Assembly (NCBI GenBank): GCA_022828145.1
Contig: JAJEJA010000121.1
Coordinates: 1,968 to 65,967, forward strand
DNA length: 64,000 bases
Reading direction: 5' to 3'
Source: Candidatus Poribacteria bacterium
GTDB lineage: Bacteria > Poribacteria > WGA-4E > WGA-3G
Shown here: positions 5,544 through 64,000 of the stretch, one piece after another
Position numbering within the stretch: position 1 is the first letter of the stretch
Layout of the letters: each line of letters opens with the position of its first letter
The notes under the pieces: generated by a model
Told to the model about the DNA's origin: nothing
Seen by the model: only the letters and a program-made list of their open reading frames with translations
Database searches by the model: none
Translations under genes and position numbers: made by a program

Positions 5544-8178
5544 TTCTCACTGTAGGGCGCAGGCGTTTTCCCTCTATGTCAGAGAGAATGAGATCGGTTA
5601 TCTTTAGGGCGGTTATCTTTAAGGGGGAAGGAGATTCATCTAAAATCTCAAAAGTAATTGTCGCAAGTGTGCCGTTTCCATTACCCACGCCTATCAATGC
5701 GGTTGCTGCAAGTGTTAATTGATTTTTCTTTAATATCGGTTTTATAAAGAACGGGTGATCTGGCAAGAAATCTCCATTACTACTTGAGATATATCGGAGT
5801 CTTCTTTCATCAAATTGGAGTGTTAATTGATAGCCAGCGACGTTTTCTCCATTGATTATCTCGATGTTATATTTCTGTTGTTTCCCAATAGTTTTCTGCT
5901 GTGTTGAAGGCACAATGTTTACGGTCATGTTTTTATTTTCACGTTCTACCTGTTCCCATATAACGATTGTTCCATCATAGCTTGCACTGGTAACTGTTTC
6001 GTCTATTGGAGATAACGCCATTGAAGTAACGTTTGAATTGTGTCCATTTAGAGTCTTTATACGTTGACGAAGCTGAATATCCCATATCTCAATGTTGCCT
6101 CCAAAATCACCGTAGAGTATCTTGCTGTCTGGTGAAAACATCAATGGGAACGCACCACTTTTCTCAGATAACGTTGATATGTTTTTTCCTGTATCTACAT
6201 CCCATAATTGTGTTGTTTTACCACAACTGATAAGTGATTTTCCATCAGGTGAAAACGTTAATGTGAAATTGTTGTCCAGATGGCCCGAAAGCGTACGTTT
6301 ATGTTTTCCTGTATAAGCATCCCACAATTGAATCTCCCATTCGCCACCCGTTGCGAGTATTTTTCCGTCTGGTGAGAATGCTAATGCGCGCGTGCTCCAC
6401 GGGTGTCCTTCAAGCGTAAATCGCTGTTCTCCAGTAGCAGTGTTCCATACCCGTATCTCTTTTTCGCTTGCACTTGCAAGCACAGTCTGATCATTTGAAA
6501 ACAAGACTCTATCTACTTTTTTCGTATGTCCTACCAACATCTTTTTGGGTTTTCCGGAGTATGCATCCCACAGGAATATCGTCTTATCTGCGCTTCCACT
6601 TGCAAGTATTTTGTTATCTGATGAAAATGCTAATGACAGCACTACCTCAGAATGTCCCGTAAGGTTTGCAAGAGTCTTACCTGTTTTCACATCCCACAGT
6701 TTCACATCCCACTGTCTTAATGTGTTTTCCTTACTTGCACTTGCAAACGTTTTTCCATCTGGAGATAAGGCAGCCGCAATGACTGAATCTGTATGTCCGT
6801 TAAGTGTCGAATGATATTTATAAGTCTCACCATCAAACAACCAGATTTTGGCTGTCCCGTCTCCACAAGCGAATGTTTTACCATCCTTTGAGAGTAGGAC
6901 AAAAGGATGACCGTATCTGTGGCTGCGTTGGCTCGGGTAACTGAACTGTGCTATCTGTATGCCAGTTTTTGCATCCCATAACTGAATTTCATTACTATTC
7001 CAACTTGCAAACTTAGAACCTTCTGGCGAGAATGCCAACCGAGAAACAATCCCTGTCAGAGTCAGCGTTTTCTGTGGAGATTTCAACGTTTCTGCATCTT
7101 TTTCCTCCTTGCTGTTACCTTTCAGATTGTTGACATCTAACCACCGAATTGTAGTGTTCGTTTGGTCTTCTGTGGAAACTATTCTTAAACCGTCAGGTGA
7201 ATAAGCGATTGCGTAAACGCTATTTAGTTTTGCATCTAATTCTGCCTTCGGTTTTCCGGAGTATGCATCCCACAGTCGCACTGTGGACATCTCAACTCCA
7301 TGACATGTAACAAAGGTTGAGCTATTGAGAGAAAAGGCAATTACACCTAAATTACATTCTTGATAGACTGCTATTATGTTTTCTGAATGTGTATCCCACA
7401 ACCTAACAACCCCATTGGAATTCTGTGTTGCAATACGTTTGCCATTAGGTGAGAATAACACTGCATTGGGACCTTGTCCCCCTCCTTTCAACAGAGCATG
7501 CTGCTTGCCGTTGTCAGCATTCCAGAGGCGAACAGTCCCATCGGTGCTTGCACTGGCAAGCATTGTGGCATCTGGTGAGAATTTCAATGCCGTGATCCAA
7601 CCCGTGTGTCCCGTAAGTGTCAACTTCTCTTTCATATTCACGAGGTCCCACAATCTGACAGAACTATCAGCATTTTCTGGTTCCGGAGCTTCCATGTCCC
7701 CCCAAAAATTATTTCTTCTGATTTGACTGCTTCTTACTGTGCCACTGGCAAGTGTTTTACTATCTGAAGAGAATGCTAAAGCTCTGGTATCACCTGTATG
7801 TCCTGAAAATGTTGCGATATGTTTGTATGAATTGGCATCCCACACGCGCACTGTTTTGTCGTAGCTACCGCTTGCGATGCGTTTCCCATCAGGCGAATAT
7901 ACAACTGCCGTAACAGCATCTGTATGTCCGGTAAGCAATGCTAAATCCTCTCCGGTATGTGCATCATGAATCCAAATTCCGATGTGGGAGCATGCAATGG
8001 CTATTTTTTTACCGTCCGGTGAAAAGTCGAAGTCCGTCCAACGTCCTTGTCCAATTCGCATCTTTGCCCCTTCAGGTAATGCACGAAGGGGTAGCGGTGG
8101 ACCGCTTCCAATAGCATTGGTTAGTAATATGGTTAGGAGTGTTAATGTGCTGATGATTATGGATATGTGTTTTTTCAT
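5527..8178 (-). CDS. Secreted WD40 beta-propeller repeat protein (883 aa) with a C-terminal cohesin-like module (about nt 5568-5901)
   Basis: N-terminal signal-like segment. An AGGAGGAG RBS lies about 10 nt upstream of the ATG at 8178. There are many WD40 blades. The C-terminal GYQLTLQFDERRLRYISS...TLATITFEILD matches the cohesin-like pattern seen in the neighbouring gene. Confidence 0.8.
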   Translation of the reverse strand: MKKHISIIISTLTLLTILLTNAIGSGPPLPLRALPEGAKMRIGQGRWTDFDFSPDGKKIAIACSHIGIWIHDAHTGEDLALLTGHTDAVTAVVYSPDGKRIASGSYDKTVRVWDANSYKHIATFSGHTGDTRALAFSSDSKTLASGTVRSSQIRRNNFWGDMEAPEPENADSSVRLWDLVNMKEKLTLTGHTGWITALKFSPDATMLASASTDGTVRLWNADNGKQHALLKGGGQGPNAVLFSPNGKRIATQNSNGVVRLWDTHSENIIAVYQECNLGVIAFSLNSSTFVTCHGVEMSTVRLWDAYSGKPKAELDAKLNSVYAIAYSPDGLRIVSTEDQTNTTIRWLDVNNLKGNSKEEKDAETLKSPQKTLTLTGIVSRLAFSPEGSKFASWNSNEIQLWDAKTGIQIAQFSYPSQRSHRYGHPFVLLSKDGKTFACGDGTAKIWLFDGETYKYHSTLNGHTDSVIAAALSPDGKTFASASKENTLRQWDVKLWDVKTGKTLANLTGHSEVVLSLAFSSDNKILASGSADKTIFLWDAYSGKPKKMLVGHTKKVDRVLFSNDQTVLASASEKEIRVWNTATGEQRFTLEGHPWSTRALAFSPDGKILATGGEWEIQLWDAYTGKHKRTLSGHLDNNFTLTFSPDGKSLISCGKTTQLWDVDTGKNISTLSEKSGAFPLMFSPDSKILYGDFGGNIEIWDIQLRQRIKTLNGHNSNVTSMALSPIDETVTSASYDGTIVIWEQVERENKNMTVNIVPSTQQKTIGKQQKYNIEIINGENVAGYQLTLQFDERRLRYISSSNGDFLPDHPFFIKPILKKNQLTLAATALIGVGNGNGTLATITFEILDESPSPLKITALKITDLILSDIEGKRLRPTVRNEEEN

Positions 8179-13984: not shown

Positions 13985-14400
13985 GCATCCGCTGTCAGAA
14001 TGTCGGATTACGCGGAGGACGCGGAAGGGGTTTCTTGGGCATTTCAAGTTTACTTTCACAAGTTGGTGTTGATTTTAGCAAAACCCCATAGGTGTCAATT
14101 TAGTACAGAGAAGGGTAATAAAGGATGAATGGCGTTGGAGAAAGAGGCACAATCAAGGATGAATGTGCTACAGCAGTATCAAGTTTTTTCCTGTGCGGAG
14201 AAGGATAATGAAGGATGAATGGGTTGGGAGATAGAAGCACAATCTAACAGAATGTGCTACAGGCATGGTCTTGGGAATCGCTCAATTGATGATTATAGGC
14301 GATTTTAGCAAAACCCTCTTTTTCTGTGTTCTCCGTGCCTTCCGCGATTCTGACGCGTAATCCGTCTGAATCGCGGCAAGCGCGGAGGAGGTGGATATGC
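13985..14400. repeat. About 400-bp repeat-structured non-coding block. It has imperfect flanking inverted repeats (cggattacgcggaggacgcggaagg / ccttccgcgattctgacgcgtaatccg), two copies of gattttagcaaaaccc and two about 60-bp tandem units (aaggatgaatgg.gttggaga.aga.gcacaatc...gaatgtgctacag).
   Basis: Repeats identified by eye directly in the sequence. There is no convincing ORF. Could be a MITE, an IS remnant or an sRNA locus. Confidence 0.4.
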
Positions 14401-56851: not shown

Positions 56852-56934
56852 CTCTTTAGTCCCGTAGGGACGATATGTTTATAGATCGCGTATATCCACG
56901 GCCTCTTTAGTCCCGTAGGGACGATATGTTTATA
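56852..56934. repeat. Two 32-bp direct repeats (ctctttagtcccgtagggacgatatgtttata) with a 51-bp period, followed by a partial inverted copy (aacatatcgtc) at about 56950-56960
   Basis: Exact repeat read in the sequence. Intergenic position between divergent genes. Confidence 0.5.
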
Positions 56935-57102
56935 AATACCGTCGCATAACATATCGTCACTGATGAAGTTAAAGAAGATATTTGGGTAATTTGGCGAGGT
57001 TAGGAAACCTCGCCAGCAGAGTGTTGTACCTTCATTATGCAAACAAGAAATTACCCGTTTAATTATTTAAACTTCATAAGGCATTCATAACGTTGATTTA
57101 TA

Positions 57103-57169
57103 GGTAGAGCGAAGCGAAACCCGACAGGATAGACATATCAATACGTGTCGGGTTTCGCTTCGCTCTACC
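57103..57169. repeat. Perfect 24-bp inverted repeat (ggtagagcgaagcgaaacccgaca ... tgtcgggtttcgcttcgctctacc) with a 19-nt loop. A very stable hairpin or protein-binding palindrome.
   Basis: Read directly. It lies in the divergent promoter region between the SBP gene and the MBL-fold gene. There is no adjacent U-tract in a position to make it a terminator for either flanking gene. Confidence 0.6.
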
Positions 57170-57257: not shown

Positions 57258-58760
57258 ATGGAGTATGTTTTCTTAGGCGGGGCTGGTGAAGTCGGTGCGT
57301 CCTGCCTACTCGTTTCTGTCGCAAACCGACATATACTGTTCGACTGTGGGATACGTGTTAATCAAACAGGTGACGACGCTTTACCAGATATTGAGCTGCT
57401 CAAGCAACGTGTGTCATCACTTGATGCTATCTTCGTATCACACGCACACGCTGATCACATAGGTGCATTACCTCACATACACACAGCATTTCCACAAACT
57501 CCGATCTATACAACAGAACCCACACAAAGCATCTCCGTGGTCATGCTTGCCGATGCTGTGCGTCTACAAACAAGAGAAGAGAATGAGGATGCAATACCCC
57601 TTTTCACACAAGAAACAGTTGATGTCACTATTGAAAAAATGCAGATACTGAAGAACAGTGAATGGATTGACTTATGGGAAGGTTGGCGTGTAAAAATGAT
57701 CCGTTCTGGACATGTACTCGGCGCGGTGAGTATCTTACTTGATACGCCAGAAGGCACTTACCTCTACGGTGGAGACATCTCTACATTTAATCAGAAAACT
57801 ATTGACGGGCTTGCACAAGACGAAATTACCGGTATACAACCCGACTTTATGTGGAGTGAAGCAACTTATGGCGATGGAAACCATCCAGCACGCAGTACCG
57901 AAGAAAAGAAACTCGCTGAATCTGTCGCAGCTGTCGTTGAAAACGGTGGTTCTGTTCTCATACCAAGCTTTGCACTCGGACGCGCACAGGAGATCATCCT
58001 CATACTCAGAGACGCAATGATTAGCAAGAATATTCCGGTGTTTCCTGTCATCACAGACGGACTTGTCAACTCTATCTGTTCGGTATACGAAACGCTCACA
58101 TCTCACCTTGGGACAAGACTACAAAAATTTCTCAAAAACTCAAGGCAACCGTTGTTCTACTACAAAAACTTCCAAAAGGCAAGAATGGGTGAACAAGAGA
58201 TAATCTGTGCGGATGGTGTACCTCGATGTATTATCGCAAGCTCAGGGATGCTCACAGGCGGTGCTTCAGTGGTTTACGCGAAAGCATTGGCTGCTAACGA
58301 AATGAACGCTATCTTCTTGTCAGGATATCAGGATGCAGAATCCCCAGGGAGACGACTACAGGAACTCACACAAGGTGATACACTCACCTTCGCTGATGGC
58401 ACCAGTGTGGATGTGAACTGTCAAGTTGAAAGATTTAGTCTATCAGCTCACAGTGATCAAGAACAGCTGCTCTCGGTCATAAAACAGGTAGACCCAAAAG
58501 CACTTGCTCTCGTTCACGGTGAACAAAACGCACTATCTGCATTGCACGAAAAGATATGTAAAGATTATACAGTAAGTTGTCCTGCAAATGGGGAAATATG
58601 TGAGAGGACAGCTGAACCAAAATTTGCGGTTCAGATCACAGACACCGGCGTTGTGATGGATGGGGATATTATCAACTCAAAACTGTGGACAGACTTTGCA
58701 GAAGGGAAACATCAGGCAGTACTGAAAGACGGAGAACTCATTATTCGCAAAGCTGAGTAA
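57258..58760 (+). CDS. Metallo-beta-lactamase-fold hydrolase of the beta-CASP type (RNase J / CPSF-like ribonuclease)
   Basis: HxHxDH motif (VSHAHADHIGALP) near the N-terminus, about 500 aa, and a late SAHSD motif (LSAHSDQEQL) typical of beta-CASP motif C. Confidence 0.7.
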   Translation: MEYVFLGGAGEVGASCLLVSVANRHILFDCGIRVNQTGDDALPDIELLKQRVSSLDAIFVSHAHADHIGALPHIHTAFPQTPIYTTEPTQSISVVMLADAVRLQTREENEDAIPLFTQETVDVTIEKMQILKNSEWIDLWEGWRVKMIRSGHVLGAVSILLDTPEGTYLYGGDISTFNQKTIDGLAQDEITGIQPDFMWSEATYGDGNHPARSTEEKKLAESVAAVVENGGSVLIPSFALGRAQEIILILRDAMISKNIPVFPVITDGLVNSICSVYETLTSHLGTRLQKFLKNSRQPLFYYKNFQKARMGEQEIICADGVPRCIIASSGMLTGGASVVYAKALAANEMNAIFLSGYQDAESPGRRLQELTQGDTLTFADGTSVDVNCQVERFSLSAHSDQEQLLSVIKQVDPKALALVHGEQNALSALHEKICKDYTVSCPANGEICERTAEPKFAVQITDTGVVMDGDIINSKLWTDFAEGKHQAVLKDGELIIRKAE

Positions 58761-58798: not shown

Positions 58799-59950
58799 AT
58801 GAAAACATACCGAATTGCTATTTTGGGATGTAGAGGACGTGGTACAGCGGCTGCACGGGCATATCACGCACATCCCAGAACAGAAATCGTTGGACTCTGC
58901 GACCTAATTCATGAACGATACAACGCATTGGGTAAAGAACTCAATGTCTCTGCACGATTCACCGACCTTGATGAGATGATTCGGCAGACTTCACCTGACA
59001 TCGTTGCAATTCCTACAGCAACAGAATTACACTACGATTTATGTATGCGTGTTTTGGAACACGGTGTCCATATTGAAGTAGAAAAACCGATGTGTGTTGA
59101 TCTTGTGGAAGCAGATGCTGTCATCGCAAAAGCTGAAGACAAGGGTGTACAGGTTGCTGTACATCATCAAGGGAGAGTCGGTGCGGCGATGCAAGCGATT
59201 GCAAACGCTTACAATGCCGGAAAGATCGGCAACTTGCGATATATCTATGGTAGTGGTAAAGGCTATTACGGTGGATATGGCTTGATGAACATCGGCACAC
59301 ACATGCTCAACAACATGCTTCATTTCGGGAGAAGTTGTAAAAGTGTTGTTGCACATCTGACAACAGGAGGAAAACCGATTACACCTGAAGACGTTGTCCC
59401 ATCACCAAGCGGTATGGGGACCATTGCTGGTGAATATATCACCGCAACAATGCAGTTTGAAGACAACGTTACTGGTACACTATTACAACACCGTTTTGGT
59501 AAAATGGATACAAACGCCTATACTATGGAACTGTTTGGAACTGAAGGAAGGCTCTTCTGGAAATTGGGTGGTGCATATTATTTACCAACGCCACACTATC
59601 TACCAGATGGCAACAATGACAAATGGGAATCGTTAGCGTTAATATATCCTGATCATTACAACCCGAAAAGCAGTGCAGATGAAATGGATTACTGGTTTGT
59701 TGAGGATTATGTCAATGCCTTGGATGAAGGCAGACCCCATGTGTGTAGTGGTGATGAGGGAAGACATGTTATTGAAATGATGATGGGCATTTTTGAATCT
59801 GCTGCTTATGGAAAGCGGGTGGATTTACCCCAGACTGATAGGACACATCCGTTGCTACGGTGGCGTGAGGAGTCAGGATTACCTTCTCCCGCTGAAATGC
59901 CACGCGGATACGGTGAATGGTTAAATCTGGAAAAAAAACGTATCAGTTGA
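58799..59950 (+). CDS. Gfo/Idh/MocA-family NAD(P)-dependent oxidoreductase
   Basis: N-terminal Rossmann IAILGCRGRGTAAARAY, plus the characteristic EKP motif (IEVEKPM). Confidence 0.8.
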   Translation: MKTYRIAILGCRGRGTAAARAYHAHPRTEIVGLCDLIHERYNALGKELNVSARFTDLDEMIRQTSPDIVAIPTATELHYDLCMRVLEHGVHIEVEKPMCVDLVEADAVIAKAEDKGVQVAVHHQGRVGAAMQAIANAYNAGKIGNLRYIYGSGKGYYGGYGLMNIGTHMLNNMLHFGRSCKSVVAHLTTGGKPITPEDVVPSPSGMGTIAGEYITATMQFEDNVTGTLLQHRFGKMDTNAYTMELFGTEGRLFWKLGGAYYLPTPHYLPDGNNDKWESLALIYPDHYNPKSSADEMDYWFVEDYVNALDEGRPHVCSGDEGRHVIEMMMGIFESAAYGKRVDLPQTDRTHPLLRWREESGLPSPAEMPRGYGEWLNLEKKRIS

Positions 59951-59982
59951 CTCTGACGTATGAGCTATTGATTGGTTAGAAC

Positions 59983-60318
59983 CTAATTCACAGGGGAGAG
60001 ATGCTTTGCTTGTGTATCTTCAATTACCAGACGATTCTTATGCGTGTTCAACAGAGATCTGAACGTATCTAATAATTGTGTAGCATCCTCATTAGAGAGC
60101 ATATTTGAAAGGGTTTCAGCATCAATACCCGTTTTATTAGACAGTTCAGAAACTCCCCCTTGTGATGCTATAAAAGTCTTGAGGCATTTTAGAAAGAAGG
60201 GGAGATCATCATCAACAAGGTATTCCTCCAATGTCAACTGAAGATAATCAATCGCTGCCTCGCGGTCAGTGGCAAGATATTCAATAAAGTACTCATTCCA
60301 GTTTCCCATCTCTCTCAT
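59983..60318 (-). CDS. Addiction-module antidote protein (HI1420/HigA-like HTH antitoxin family)
   Basis: 111 aa. DREAAIDYLQLTLEEYLVDDDLPFFLKCLKTFIASQGGVSELSNKTGIDAETLSNML matches the 'probable addiction module antidote' family pattern (...ALRDVAEARGGMSKLAEETGLSRESLYKALS). AAGGAG RBS. The ATGA overlaps the toxin-remnant stop. Confidence 0.7.
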   Translation of the reverse strand: MREMGNWNEYFIEYLATDREAAIDYLQLTLEEYLVDDDLPFFLKCLKTFIASQGGVSELSNKTGIDAETLSNMLSNEDATQLLDTFRSLLNTHKNRLVIEDTQAKHLSPVN

Positions 60319-60593
60319 TGTCGTGTCTCCTTATATTCTATCAAATATGATTTAGCAGATTCAATATCCTGTTGTTGTGAGGTTTTGTCCCCGCCACAAA
60401 GTAAAAGAATTAGTCTGTTACTGATTTAACCAAAATAGATGCGATATCCTGGTTCAAAGTGGAGACGCAATTCAAAAACACCTTCACCCACAGATTGGCA
60501 ATCACCAAAATTGCCATCTTCAAGCCGTTTAAGTCGTCTTTCTACTCTGAATTCGCAAACTTGCTCTTCAAAATCAGAACGCTTTATTTGTCG
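60315..60593 (-). pseudogene. Disrupted HI1419/RelE-ParE-like 'addiction module killer' toxin. The N-terminal part is fused in frame to the upstream 429-aa ORF. An in-frame TAA at 60426-60428 is followed by an in-frame C-terminal remnant (ISNRLILLLCGGDKTSQQQDIESAKSYLIEYKETRQ*).
   Basis: The upstream part [36 protein letters not shown] and the post-stop LILLLCGGDKTSQQQDI together reproduce the killer-family consensus (...RLELGNFGD.KPVGEGVSELRI..GPGYRVYF...ILLLCGGDKSSQ..DI..AK). A single TAA separates the two parts. There is no plausible Met start. Confidence 0.55.
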
Positions 60594-61715
60594 AAACCGA
60601 TTGTGTCGCAAATTTTCATAGAAAATCCATGAATCTGGATTTATGCTGGGGGCAAATATACCAAACAGTGTGTCGGTCGCACAGAGAAAACTCTTGAGTG
60701 GTTCATGACTATACGCATCATTGTCAGAACTTGTGATATATTTGCATTCTGCTATAGTGATATAGTTTCCTTTTTTGTCACATAGCACGAAGTCAGCCCT
60801 GCTATGGAGCGTACCTATCTGAATTCCCCACTCTCTGATAATGGAAAATTCCGAGAATTTAGATTCGGAGAGATAAGCAAAAGTAACTTCTACGATATCA
60901 AGCTCCTTTAGTCGTTCCTCTATAACAAAACTGAAATCATCTTCTCCCTGTTTTTCTGCCAGTTTCAAGGCATACTGGAGATCTGTCTTTGCCCCCTTAA
61001 TATCATTAAGTCCGGACTTTGCTTCACCACGACATGTGTGGATACTGGCATAATCCGGGTTTATAGAAATTGCCAAGTCGAATGCAGAAATAGCTTGATC
61101 TGACTGACCACCAGTCCAAAGGAGACAACCGATGGAAAATAATACGTTGACGAAATCTGTTTTTGTCTGTCCTGATAGAGGGGCAGGTACATCGCTATTG
61201 TTGCCATTAGTTTCAACAGATGCCTTTTTTGTTAGTTCGGGAAAGAGAGTATTTAGTTTTTGAAAATGCTGATCCTCATAAGCTTTAATTAGTTTACCTA
61301 TCAATGTCATTGTTGCGGTTAAAGGGTGCTTTTCGTCTTCACCCACACTACATATTAAATCATCCAGGAATTCTAAAAGTTGATAATACTCGGCTTCTGT
61401 TACTACAACCTGACTAAGATCTTCATTACGATTTACGATACTTGTGAACAGTTCCAGCAACCGTATTAACCACTGTGTTATAGTTGCGGGGTAAGGTGCC
61501 ATATTGACAAATCCTTTTGTGTAAGGTAATTCGGCGTAAGGAAAAAATTCACGTAACTCATTTACCGACTTGAAATTTCTTTCTCGTATCAGATTGAGCC
61601 ATCGTATAATGCTTGGTCTGGAGGTTGAATGTCTAACTGCAAATTCAGTGAGTTTATGTTCAGCAATAATCTGCATTGTTAACTTGTCTAACAAGGGAAT
61701 CGTTAGAATAACCAA
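60426..61715 (-). CDS. Hypothetical 429-aa ORF with a TPR-like segment and a PD-(D/E)xK-like motif (ADFVLCD...IAECK). Its last about 55 aa are the fused N-terminal part of the disrupted killer toxin.
   Basis: ORF as in the six-frame track. TPR-like [41 protein letters not shown]. The D...E.K spacing is suggestive of a restriction-endonuclease-like fold. Speculative. Confidence 0.4.
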
Positions 61716-62088
61716 CTACTACCCAGAAGACGATATCACAAGTAAATTTGATTATTCTGATAGGAGCGATTATGTAAAACTATCTATACCTCTAATTCAC
61801 TATAGCGTGAAATACTTCAGGAATTATACATCAAGTATGTAATGGAATTCAAAGAAAAATAGAATATAAATTGTAGTTTTATATGTTTTGAGTGCTTTTG
61901 AGTTGAAAGATTACGATGGTCTGTTTTGTGTTTTGGAAAACCGATTTGACAGTGCAATGAACGAAAATGAGGATTTTTATCAATTTGAAGTCATCTCATA
62001 AACAGAGAGACGATAAGATAGTTTTCTCTGATTCTCTTTGTGCTTATACTTAAGGATATTTTATTGAACAAAAGGAAAGAGGCAAATT

Positions 62089-64000
62089 TTAGATAGTAAT
62101 GGACTTTACACAACGAAATCCAGTGATGCTGTCTGTTCTTTTTGGATTGAATGGACGCCGGGAAGCGACACGTAAACCAAGATGGTTAATAACCCAAGCC
62201 CCTCCACGCGACACACGAGAACTTTCAATATTTTTAAAATTAGATATGAGGTAATCTAAACTCTTACCTGCAACAGGATTATGATAGGGTGAGGAACTAT
62301 AGAAATCACGATCATATTCATCAAGACACCACTCCCACACGTTTCCCGCCATGTCATACAAACCAAATCCGTTGGCTGGATAATTACCAACAGGAGTTGT
62401 ATCCTTAACTTGCATAAAATAATTTGCTTTACTGCGATCAATAGAATTTCCCCATGGGTATGTTTTACCTTGCAGGTTACTTCGGGCAGCTTTCTCCCAT
62501 TCTGCTTCTGTTGGAAGACGCTTACCTATCCATTCAGCATATGCCATAGCTGCATACCAACTCACATAAGTGACAGGATGATCTTCTTTCCCATTTGGGT
62601 AGTTATTCTCTACCCAATTTCGCAAGTAGTCTCCATCATGGTATTCTTCAGAGATGTAATCCTTGTGCCATTCAGGATTATCATCAACAAACTTCTTATA
62701 TTGACGATTTGTTACCTCGTGAATGTTTATGTTAAAAGCATCAATGTAAACCTTATGGATAGGTTCTTCGTCCGGATAATCTTTACTTCCCATAGAATAT
62801 TCACCCTCGGGAATCTGAATCATATCTGAAGATGTAAAAATCAAACGGTCTATTGACATCAAAAAATCACGAGAAGGACGATAGGTGGGATCAATTTCTA
62901 ACGCTTCTGTAGCAGCTTTTTGGGCATCTATTTTGTTCCCTGATCCCTGATAGGCAAGACTAAGCCCATGGAGTACTTCCTTAGAATTGGGGTTAATGTT
63001 TCTAGCTTTTTTGAACTCATCAATTGCTTTTTCATATCTATTACTGCGAAGAAAAGAAATACCTTGCTCGTAATGAGTTTTTGCATCTGAAAAACTATCC
63101 GCTTTTTTAGATGCGTTTACTGCACCAGGGGATTCGTCAACCTTATAAATATCCAGGTTTTCCTGATATTGTGTAATAGTATTTGTGGGTTGTGAGATTA
63201 CTTCTAACGGAACAAGTTGATCTATAGAGGTCGCTTGACAAAATTCTTTTAAGAAACTAACTAAAAGTTTAATCTTTGGTGACAAACCTTCTAAAACTTG
63301 GAATACACTTGAGTTTTCACAATTTTCAAAATCCGTCTTTGAAAACAACAATCCTTTTTCAGTTTTATCCTTAAACTGATCCCACAGATCTGGTTTTTCT
63401 GCTAAGCTCAAAAACGAAAGGTAAATGACTAGTTCTGAGAAATAATCAACCTTTTCATTGGCTTGTCTGCCACCTTGCATTCTCTTCGGATGTTGATATT
63501 CAGGAAGTCCAATTATTTGATCTAGTTCTTCCTGAAGTGTGGGAACGAATAAACTATCATAGTCTATTAACTTGATAATAACATCAGTCCCATTTAACTT
63601 GTTGAGAAGAATATTTCCATCTTGCAGATCTCCATGAGCGATCTTATGATCATGTAATTTGTTTACCATCTTGCGAAACTCGCTCGCGGCAGTTTCAAAG
63701 ATCTTTGAATTTCTGATATTTTGTGTTATAAACTCTCGTAGTGGAACACCTTCAGCCCATTGCATACGTGTTATAGGGTATTTCTCGCCATCTATCAAAA
63801 TGCCGCGAGGAACATAATCGAAATCTACAAAGTAGGGTAAACAAATATGTTTTAGGTAATCAGATGTTTTTTTATATCGAGTTTCAACATTCTTGACATC
63901 TTTCAACCAACACCTTAATGCAAAGGTCTTGGAAGCAGTCTTGATAGGAAAAACTATTGAAAATCCACCAGAGTAACTTATAAGAAACCCGTCTTTACCT
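62089..64000 (-). CDS. Ser/Thr protein kinase-like domain, TPR and a C-terminal formylglycine-generating-enzyme (FGE/SUMF1) domain in one fusion protein. The ORF is open to the window end, so it is 5'-truncated by the window.
   Basis: The frame is open upstream of the listed TTG start and encodes a Gly-rich loop (SGGFSIVF) and ALR (VAIK-like). Catalytic loop IAHGDLQDGNILL. TPR segment. FGE hallmarks (GNVWEWCLDEY, RVSRGGAW, GFRCV). Confidence 0.8.
   Translation of the reverse strand, partial: GKDGFLISYSGGFSIVFPIKTASKTFALRCWLKDVKNVETRYKKTSDYLKHICLPYFVDFDYVPRGILIDGEKYPITRMQWAEGVPLREFITQNIRNSKIFETAASEFRKMVNKLHDHKIAHGDLQDGNILLNKLNGTDVIIKLIDYDSLFVPTLQEELDQIIGLPEYQHPKRMQGGRQANEKVDYFSELVIYLSFLSLAEKPDLWDQFKDKTEKGLLFSKTDFENCENSSVFQVLEGLSPKIKLLVSFLKEFCQATSIDQLVPLEVISQPTNTITQYQENLDIYKVDESPGAVNASKKADSFSDAKTHYEQGISFLRSNRYEKAIDEFKKARNINPNSKEVLHGLSLAYQGSGNKIDAQKAATEALEIDPTYRPSRDFLMSIDRLIFTSSDMIQIPEGEYSMGSKDYPDEEPIHKVYIDAFNINIHEVTNRQYKKFVDDNPEWHKDYISEEYHDGDYLRNWVENNYPNGKEDHPVTYVSWYAAMAYAEWIGKRLPTEAEWEKAARSNLQGKTYPWGNSIDRSKANYFMQVKDTTPVGNYPANGFGLYDMAGNVWEWCLDEYDRDFYSSSPYHNPVAGKSLDYLISNFKNIESSRVSRGGAWVINHLGLRVASRRPFNPKRTDSITGFRCVKSITI

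Follow-up and report, generated by a model that had tools for sequence, protein, structure and literature searches.

An orphan HI1420-like antitoxin beside a predicted toxin pseudogene at a probably decayed toxin-antitoxin locus of Candidatus Poribacteria

What becomes of a toxin-antitoxin (TA) module whose antidote gene looks whole while a stop codon cuts its toxin gene in two, the first piece being read as the tail of the protein encoded upstream? This question is raised by a 1733-nucleotide (nt) region (positions 59983-61715) of a 64,000-nt stretch of DNA, hereafter the window, from the genome of a sponge symbiont, Candidatus Poribacteria (GenBank assembly GCA_022828145.1, contig JAJEJA010000121.1, positions 1,968 to 65,967). 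An earlier note, made from the letters alone, had proposed that the antitoxin is retained and the toxin destroyed or, alternatively, that the upstream reading frame is a novel toxin fusion. We consider it very likely that the region holds a chromosomal type II TA module of the HI1419/HI1420 kind that has decayed to a toxin pseudogene and an orphan antitoxin, and that the upstream gene, here called X, is a working gene carrying relics of two toxins rather than a designed toxin fusion.

The toxin remnant and its premature stop codon

On the minus strand, a long open reading frame (ORF) runs from 61715 to 60426 and comprises 429 amino acids (aa) counted from the TTG at 61715; the more likely start is the ATG at 61676, used by gene callers on identical contigs, from which the product has 416 aa. 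The final 40 residues are HI1419-type (TIGR02683) toxin sequence, and a TAA (60428-60426) follows. Past this codon the same frame encodes ISNRLILLLCGGDKTSQQQDIESAKSYLIEYKETRQ and is closed by a TGA (60317-60315), which shares an ATGA (60318-60315) with the antitoxin ATG (60318-60316). Translation of 60644-60310 thus bears out the split that had been described, with the N-terminal part of the toxin in the 429-aa ORF and the C-terminal part beyond the TAA, and the toxin-first order with its overlapping stop and start codons stands as proposed. The features of the module, with the promoter-like site upstream of it, are as follows.

59983-60318, minus strand: intact HI1420-like orphan antitoxin, 111 aa (ORF list, weak hidden Markov model [HMM] matches, homologues)
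60327-60332, minus strand: Shine-Dalgarno sequence AAGGAG, 8 nt 5' of the antitoxin ATG (sequence; also kept in loci L038, L039, and L040)
60315-60425, minus strand: 3' remnant of the toxin, codons 86-121 plus TGA, ISNRLILLLCGGDKTSQQQDIESAKSYLIEYKETRQ and stop, untranslated (translation, TIGR02683, alignment)
60426-60428, minus strand: premature TAA, corresponding to Gln85 (CAA) of the intact orthologue (DNA and protein alignments)
60429-60548, minus strand: toxin codons 45-84, ending GYRIYFG and carrying G66E and G76E, now the tail of the long ORF (TIGR02683 match, L041 homology)
60543-60557, minus strand: junction patch between the 3' end of gene X and toxin-derived sequence (limits of L043 and L041 homology)
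61823-61852, minus strand: promoter-like site TTGAAT-18-TATAAT, 5' of the long ORF (10 of 12 consensus matches)

With the stop masked as an unspecified residue, the remnant matches TIGR02683 at 97.5 bits (cutoff, 62.85) over positions 20-92 of the 95 in the model, far above chance; the fragment as it is really translated reaches 51.9 bits, under the cutoff. The intact orthologue P0241 (121 aa), whose residue numbering we use for the toxin, scores 121.2 bits. It is encoded at locus L041, on a 289-kb scaffold (ERZ23495076), where the complete 121-aa toxin overlaps a 111-aa antitoxin through an ATGA; at 95.6% nucleotide identity to the window, this locus also shares its downstream genes (GFO_IDH_MocA, beta-CASP metallo-beta-lactamase, SBP_bac_5, and 2-Hacid_dh). 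The same ATGA-type arrangement of toxin and antidote is seen at L039 and L040. The protein database lists 2371 homologues of the toxin, and a sequence search for solved structures matching the family returned none. By descent, then, the remnant is a member of the TIGR02683/PF05973 family (Gp49, RelE/ParE group).

A single base (C or T) separates the window from the intact orthologue at the stop codon, as would be expected if the toxin were intact in the cell and the TAA reflected a rare polymorphism or a mistake of sequencing or assembly. We looked for the codon in other assemblies, as the earlier note had advised. The 111-aa protein is encoded on contigs of three assemblies (ENA ERZ23491425, ENA ERZ23491403, and Logan SRR16351695), which represent at least two samples and two assemblers; two of these contigs (L001 and L002) match the whole 1733-nt region base for base, and on the third, a short contig (L003), the toxin-remnant stretch including the TAA is identical. 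The same TAA occurs at L038, in a separate metagenome-assembled genome (MAG; GCA_022827525.1) with approximately 95% nucleotide identity and the same downstream genes. In DNA alignments L039, L040, and L041 have CAA at this place, and in the protein alignment Gln occupies toxin position 85 in 14 of 15 intact homologues. Because the TAA is identical in three assemblies and common to the roughly 5% diverged L038, the lesion is, by these alignments, an inherited single C-to-T transition that changed Gln85 from CAA to TAA. Even with CAA restored, the gene would still be without codons 1-44, a start codon, and a promoter, and we regard an artifact or rare variant hiding an intact toxin as hardly credible.

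These further losses follow from the comparison with L041. Homology between the two loci ends at window position 60549, equivalent to codon 45 of the toxin. Everything upstream of this point is accordingly gone from the window, namely codons 1-44 with the start codon and the region holding the TA promoter, and positions 1-19 of the TIGR02683 model are correspondingly missing. The remnant also carries G76E within the conserved FGPGY motif; this change and G66E are common to the window and L038. Inspection of the sequence found no in-frame ATG, GTG, or TTG downstream of the TAA in the remnant. Because the promoter, the start codon, and residues 1-44 are gone, a nonsense codon interrupts what is left, and the FGPGY glycine is mutated, the toxin gene is a predicted pseudogene whose product cannot be made.

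A premature stop codon was also observed at L039 (3828-4004), where a paralogous and otherwise intact-looking pair has a TAA at the equivalent of L041 Tyr5 (TTG CAT GGC GGG TAA). The next canonical start codon lies only well inside the gene, and an out-of-frame ATG is nearby; this may be another inactivated toxin.

The fused reading frame

To understand how toxin codons came to be the tail of X, we compared the window with L043, the closest relative of X, and with L041. Homology to the L043 copy of X (91% nucleotide identity) extends to window position 60543, and homology to the L041 toxin begins at 60549. The patch at the junction is alike in the three sequences, GCGACTTCAGAATAAAG at the 3' end of X, GCGAAACAGAGTAGAAAG in the toxin, and GCGAATTCAGAGTAGAAAG in the window, and this alikeness suggests that the two were joined by microhomology. 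The comparison with L043 also reveals a loss of 2 nt from the window at about 60559/60558. In its old frame X would read V-x-A-N-S-E and stop at a TAG (60544-60542), comparable to P0003, which ends VIANS; with the 2 nt lost, X therefore shifts into the toxin frame and reads on to the old TAA. We also considered whether the stretch preceding the toxin codons is the toxin's own N terminus with an internal deletion; this was ruled out by the alignment, which shows the conserved C terminus of family X there. A HI1419/HI1420 module was absent beside X in all other Poribacteria X loci compared. On this evidence the fusion is a private accident of the window lineage.

The order of events was deduced by comparing loci. 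The window and L038 share the TAA but differ in their 5' lesions: at L038 a 415-nt deletion (L041 5695-6109) leaves 34 codons from the start of an upstream gene (67 aa) joined to codon 37 of the toxin. The most economical history therefore places the nonsense mutation first and makes the 5' losses independent. Under this history, Gln85 of the 121-aa toxin would have changed from CAA to TAA in the common ancestor of the window and L038 strains, in which G66E and G76E would also have arisen; each lineage would then have lost, separately, the TA promoter along with the 5' portion of the dead toxin gene. In the window lineage the break would have linked the final codons of X with toxin codon 45 inside the short patch of similarity, and the 2-nt deletion, five codons ahead of the X stop, would have extended the X frame over 40 toxin codons as far as the old TAA. 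The three related strains would thus represent successive stages of TA decay, namely, an intact pair, a nonsense codon, and independent 5' deletions that fuse the remnant to an upstream gene.

Could the 429-aa ORF instead be a functional new multidomain toxin, in which TPR repeats and a nuclease are combined with a RelE/ParE-derived C-terminal module under the control of the downstream antidote? The fusion is in frame, an antidote lies directly downstream, and at L038, too, an upstream ORF is fused in frame to the toxin remnant; furthermore, examples of fused TA genes and of multidomain proteins with a RelE/ParE fold have been described (Gerdes 2025, PMC11980606). Those fusions resemble the window in placing toxin-derived sequence in one frame with another protein, but they carry complete toxin domains, whereas both toxin pieces in the window are fragments without the catalytic part of the fold. 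The C-terminal piece consists of residues 45-84 only, so that the fold is without its C-terminal third and, at the N terminus, without its strand and helix, and its conserved FGPGY motif bears the G76E change. Two in-frame fusions are expected by chance with a probability of about 1/9 and are unremarkable.

The family of X argues in the same direction. The long ORF has 182 homologues, and those aligned have about 360 aa; the 12 aligned homologues stop at ...RHNRFRQI(K/T)R(S/A)DFE(E/K)(Q/R)V(L/V)x, before the toxin tail, with the sole exception of P0002, which is the same sequence. For the 429-aa ORF, an AlphaFold2 model based on 83 aligned sequences reaches confident values only at residues 75-290, and the nuclease-like domain and both toxin-derived ends, including the tail, have predicted local distance difference test (pLDDT) values below 50. 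Since the TA module adjoins no other X, the aligned homologues end before the tail, only residues 45-84 are present, and the fusion needs both a rearrangement and a 2-nt deletion, the novel toxin-fusion architecture proposed as an alternative finds no support here, and we give a functional multidomain toxin only a very slight chance. A decayed module beside a working X remains our reading, and it carries a warning for annotation: the long ORF can be read as a multidomain toxin, yet it appears to be a conserved gene with fragments of two different toxins at its ends.

The retained antitoxin

The 111-aa ORF had been called an HI1420-type antidote. It is intact and lies in the right position, directly 3' of TIGR02683 toxin sequence, but its HMM matches are weak: TIGR02684 scores 19.6 bits (cutoff, 53.7) and PF21716 17.9 bits (cutoff, 27). 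In the comparison with family models, then, the toxin with its stop masked exceeds its cutoff and the antidote falls short of both of its own. The orthologue that is paired with an intact toxin is likewise below the TIGR02684 and PF21716 cutoffs, and some members of the family have precomputed PF21716 matches. We found 344 homologues with 70-94% identity, those named being from Poribacteria. The window protein and its L041 orthologue are of equal length and differ at 5 residues, and all family-invariant residues are present. Residues 45-97, where a C-terminal helix-turn-helix (HTH) domain might lie, gave weak HipB-like and phage CII-like matches, and some relatives have precomputed HTH_26 or HTH_3 matches. 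The nearest plasmid relatives are annotated as "addiction module antidote protein" and adjoin a RelE/ParE toxin; PADLOC returned no match for X or for the antitoxin. The protein is best described as HI1420-like, on a putative divergent, Poribacteria-specific branch.

The locus thus shares with the HI1419/HI1420 type II TA family (TIGR02683 "upstrm_HI1419," PF05973 Gp49; TIGR02684/PF21716 "dnstrm_HI1420") the toxin-first order, the 4-nt ATGA overlap, and the TIGR02683 match once the stop is masked. It differs in that the window toxin is a predicted pseudogene (codons 1-44 lost, stop at Q85, G76E) and in that the antidote is divergent and below the HMM cutoffs.

How might an antitoxin be expressed whose promoter is gone? 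No terminator-like site was found in window positions 59800-62200. Promoter-like sites in the region numbered 11, against 7.3 ± 2.6 in shuffled sequences, and are therefore not above chance. An internal promoter-like site (60364-60335) was set aside, as its transcript would begin inside the Shine-Dalgarno sequence and the site count does not exceed chance. Because the TA promoter is deleted, no terminator-like site intervenes, and a promoter-like site lies 5' of the long ORF, the antitoxin is most likely transcribed by read-through from that X promoter-like site, identified only by its match to the consensus, with translation from its own AAGGAG.

We next asked whether selection distinguishes the antitoxin from the toxin remnant. 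The path between the window and L038 lies wholly after the TAA arose. Along it the antitoxin has acquired 7 nonsynonymous and 8 synonymous changes (dN/dS, 0.23; binomial P = 0.008), while dN/dS is 0.61 for the toxin remnant, compared with 0.18-0.23 for intact toxins; at L038 the conserved GGDK of the remnant has changed to GRDI. For X, comparison with L043 over 324 codons gives a dN/dS of 0.27. The antitoxin and X thus appear to be under purifying selection and look functional, and the toxin does not. With an inherited TAA on one side and an intact antitoxin ORF with a deficit of nonsynonymous changes on the other, the earlier proposal of an inactivated toxin and a retained antitoxin holds.

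The antitoxin could still be debris like the rest of the module, intact for lack of time. Its promoter and operator are deleted, little divergence has accumulated since toxin death (dS, 0.05-0.12), and antitoxins without a toxin can decay. Yet the deficit of nonsynonymous changes arose after the TAA, the ORF is intact in both lineages, and the invariant residues and the strong Shine-Dalgarno sequence have been retained, while the adjacent remnant was meanwhile altered at conserved sites such as GGDK. We consider wholly nonfunctional debris improbable.

Several points tell against the interpretation of a decayed module with a retained antitoxin and a working X. The substitutions behind the selection tests are few (15 in the antitoxin and 8 in the toxin remnant), and the time since toxin death is short (dS, about 0.05-0.12), so that the antitoxin may simply not yet have been hit; the TA promoter and operator are gone, and the antitoxin scores under both curated HMM cutoffs. 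The AlphaFold2 model is uninformative (pLDDT, <50) on the 43-residue foreign tail and the HigB-derived leader, either of which may harm X. Finally, a comparison of L041, L038, and L021 did not reveal the route by which X came to lie beside the TA module: an SMC gene lies upstream at L041, L038 too has an SMC flank, and at L021 X is followed by 3.2 kb without a TA module.

Toxin pseudogenes next to surviving antitoxins are common, and the orphan antitoxin beside a toxin pseudogene described here is ordinary gene decay, not a new toxin design. The antitoxin probably persists as an orphan that may neutralize either paralogous toxins, of which Poribacteria have very many in this family, or toxins brought in by mobile elements; alternatively, it may act as a DNA-binding regulator. 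Sponge symbionts are known for carrying many TA systems (PMC5649159). Orphan antitoxins left after toxin loss have been catalogued in Klebsiella and Escherichia coli populations (PMC7192599, PMC10790755); as in those cases, the antitoxin ORF is kept here beside a degraded or missing toxin, whereas in the window the decay can be put in order over three related strains and the remnant has become the tail of a neighboring gene. The TA locus itself is routine, but an antitoxin that appears to have been under selection throughout the decay makes it a clean natural example of orphan-antitoxin retention.

Protein X, its HigB partner, and flanking sequence

The protein to which the toxin remnant was joined has a history of its own, and its parts are as follows.

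60558-61530, minus strand: core of Poribacteria protein X (domain and homologue searches)
About 61257-61406, minus strand: HigA-type N-domain of X (domain searches)
About 60948-61175, minus strand: TPR repeats of X (domain searches)
About 60591-60866, minus strand: HSDR_N_2 or PD-(D/E)xK-like domain of X (domain searches)
61527-61682, minus strand: HigB relic of the PF09907 type, residues 1-52 of 115, in frame with X (tblastn with the intact HigB of L004)

Over residues 104-153, X can be aligned with the N-terminal domain of the canonical HigA from the Omnitrophota HigB-HigA pair at L034 (hhalign probability, 97.2%; E = 3e-11), and this HigA itself matches E. coli HigA (PDB 5IFG_B; E = 3.7e-14). 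The N-terminal domain is the toxin-binding domain in E. coli HigA (5IFG). Domain searches gave no match to an HTH domain in X and found TPR repeats and HSDR_N_2 in its place. The TPR repeats are matched in 82 of 83 family members and HSDR_N_2 (PF13588) in 72 of 83 at E ≤ 0.01 (best, 4e-6), in keeping with the PD-(D/E)xK-like motif noticed earlier in the upstream protein; the window copy scores 17.2 bits (cutoff, 25). Residues E295, D308, E323, and K325 are conserved in at least 90%. A Foldseek search of the AlphaFold2 model against the PDB returned generic TPR proteins only, none at E ≤ 0.001, and a PDB sequence-profile search with family X likewise returned TPR proteins only. Full-length X forms few 50%-identity clusters among 1.84 billion representatives, and the family is therefore narrow; all close genomic loci are Candidatus Poribacteria MAGs.

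At 14 Poribacteria loci an intact HigB (113-115 aa) lies 3-6 nt upstream of X; the intact HigB of L004 matches PF09907 at 80.8 bits. The HigB-X units are found at L004 (6007-7452), L005, L007, L009, L011, L012, L015-L019, L022, and L026, and the window equivalent is 61682-60558. These loci were retrieved by the HigA-N motif of X, so that a count of HigB never occurring without X is unusable as evidence. In the window, ORF residues 14-65 (61682-61527) are 73% identical to residues 1-52 of an intact Poribacteria HigB. This relic scores 14.9 bits with PF09907 (cutoff, 27), and the PADLOC model PD-Lambda-2_A matches the HigB part only. Relative to L021, exactly 312 nt are missing in frame (L021 6184-6495), and with them the second half of HigB and roughly 38 codons at the N-terminal end of X; an in-frame deletion of this length would have joined HigB residues 1-52 to X and produced the second relic.

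The same HigB'-X fusion is present at L043 (P0001), and P0018 and P0031 are HigB'-X fusions with other junctions, giving at least three in-frame junctions (FPYAEL/PYTKGF, FPHADL/EHPESA, and NFGSVRD/DVASYPES). C-terminal scraps of HigB occur alone at several other loci (the loci that lost HigB include L006, L008, L010, L020, and L027). The differing junctions and the scraps therefore indicate that HigB has been lost repeatedly and X kept. Compared with E. coli K-12 HigB-HigA (PF09907; 5IFG, 6KML), HigB likewise stands directly upstream of X in related Poribacteria and X has a HigA N-domain; the differences are that X is without an HTH domain and has TPR repeats and HSDR_N_2 and that the window HigB is cut to residues 1-52 and fused to X. 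The putative origin of X as the HigA-derived partner of a HigB toxin, the second truncated toxin at its N terminus, and, in the first toxin, the loss of codons 1-44 and the promoter together with G76E had all escaped the earlier note.

A broader interpretation is possible, and we put it forward tentatively, since we think it rather less probable than its opposite. X would be a Poribacteria-restricted HigA antitoxin in which TPR repeats and a PD-(D/E)xK nuclease-like domain have replaced the HTH domain, and with HigB it would form an undescribed two-gene TA or defense system; HigB would have been shed repeatedly (at least three fusions and several other deletions) while X was kept, and in the window the orphan antitoxin left from a second, dead TA module would also have been drawn into the X transcription unit. 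The pairing of HigB with a protein in which a HigA N-domain is followed by TPR repeats and a nuclease-like domain rather than an HTH domain may be new. It is the more interesting by-product of this analysis and falls mostly outside the original claim.

At L021 (jk18xAbins.19, the closest relative in the genome collection; 6001-7476), HigB has a frameshift near codon 20, and X is broken up into two ORFs, of 189 aa and 139 aa; either decay of the whole HigB-X unit or MAG assembly errors could produce this pattern. The nuclease-like C-terminal domain of X recurs with 55-60% identity at L006 (5743-6354), L010 (5821-6354), L014 (5854-6360), L018 (7537-10092), L025 (3514-4470), and L029 (8668-9909). 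The proteins that bear it vary in length, one of 851 aa having two copies, and the domain is also N-terminal in many unrelated architectures.

Immediately upstream of the long ORF (62089-63906, minus strand) lies a gene for a protein with a protein-kinase domain, TPR repeats, and an FGE-sulfatase domain, of 605 aa in the ORF list and 669 aa as called on identical contigs; L004 has a related kinase-TPR protein of 813 aa in the same position. A cyanobacterial origin of the window, guessed from this neighbor, was ruled out because all close loci are from Candidatus Poribacteria.

On the other side of the module, the beta-CASP/RMMBL gene encodes 500 aa in the window (57258-58760) and 246 aa at L041 (7920-8660), the strain with the intact TA pair, and L038 has an additional 145-aa gene between GFO_IDH_MocA and beta-CASP; the GFO_IDH_MocA/beta-CASP neighborhood is, by this comparison, structurally unstable. 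Intergenic sequence adjoining the beta-CASP gene (57103-57169 and 56852-56942) contains a perfect 24-nt inverted repeat, GGTAGAGCGAAGCGAAACCCGACA, with a 19-nt loop. The inverted repeat GGTAGAGCGAAGCGAAACCCGACA recurs at L039 (6913-7003), and two 40-nt direct repeats with 51-nt spacing are close by; together these look like a dispersed palindromic repeat element. Window positions 14103-14262, which are 78-82% similar to L041 4833-4968 (just 3' of the SMC gene) and to L038 5-87, are probably another dispersed repeat.

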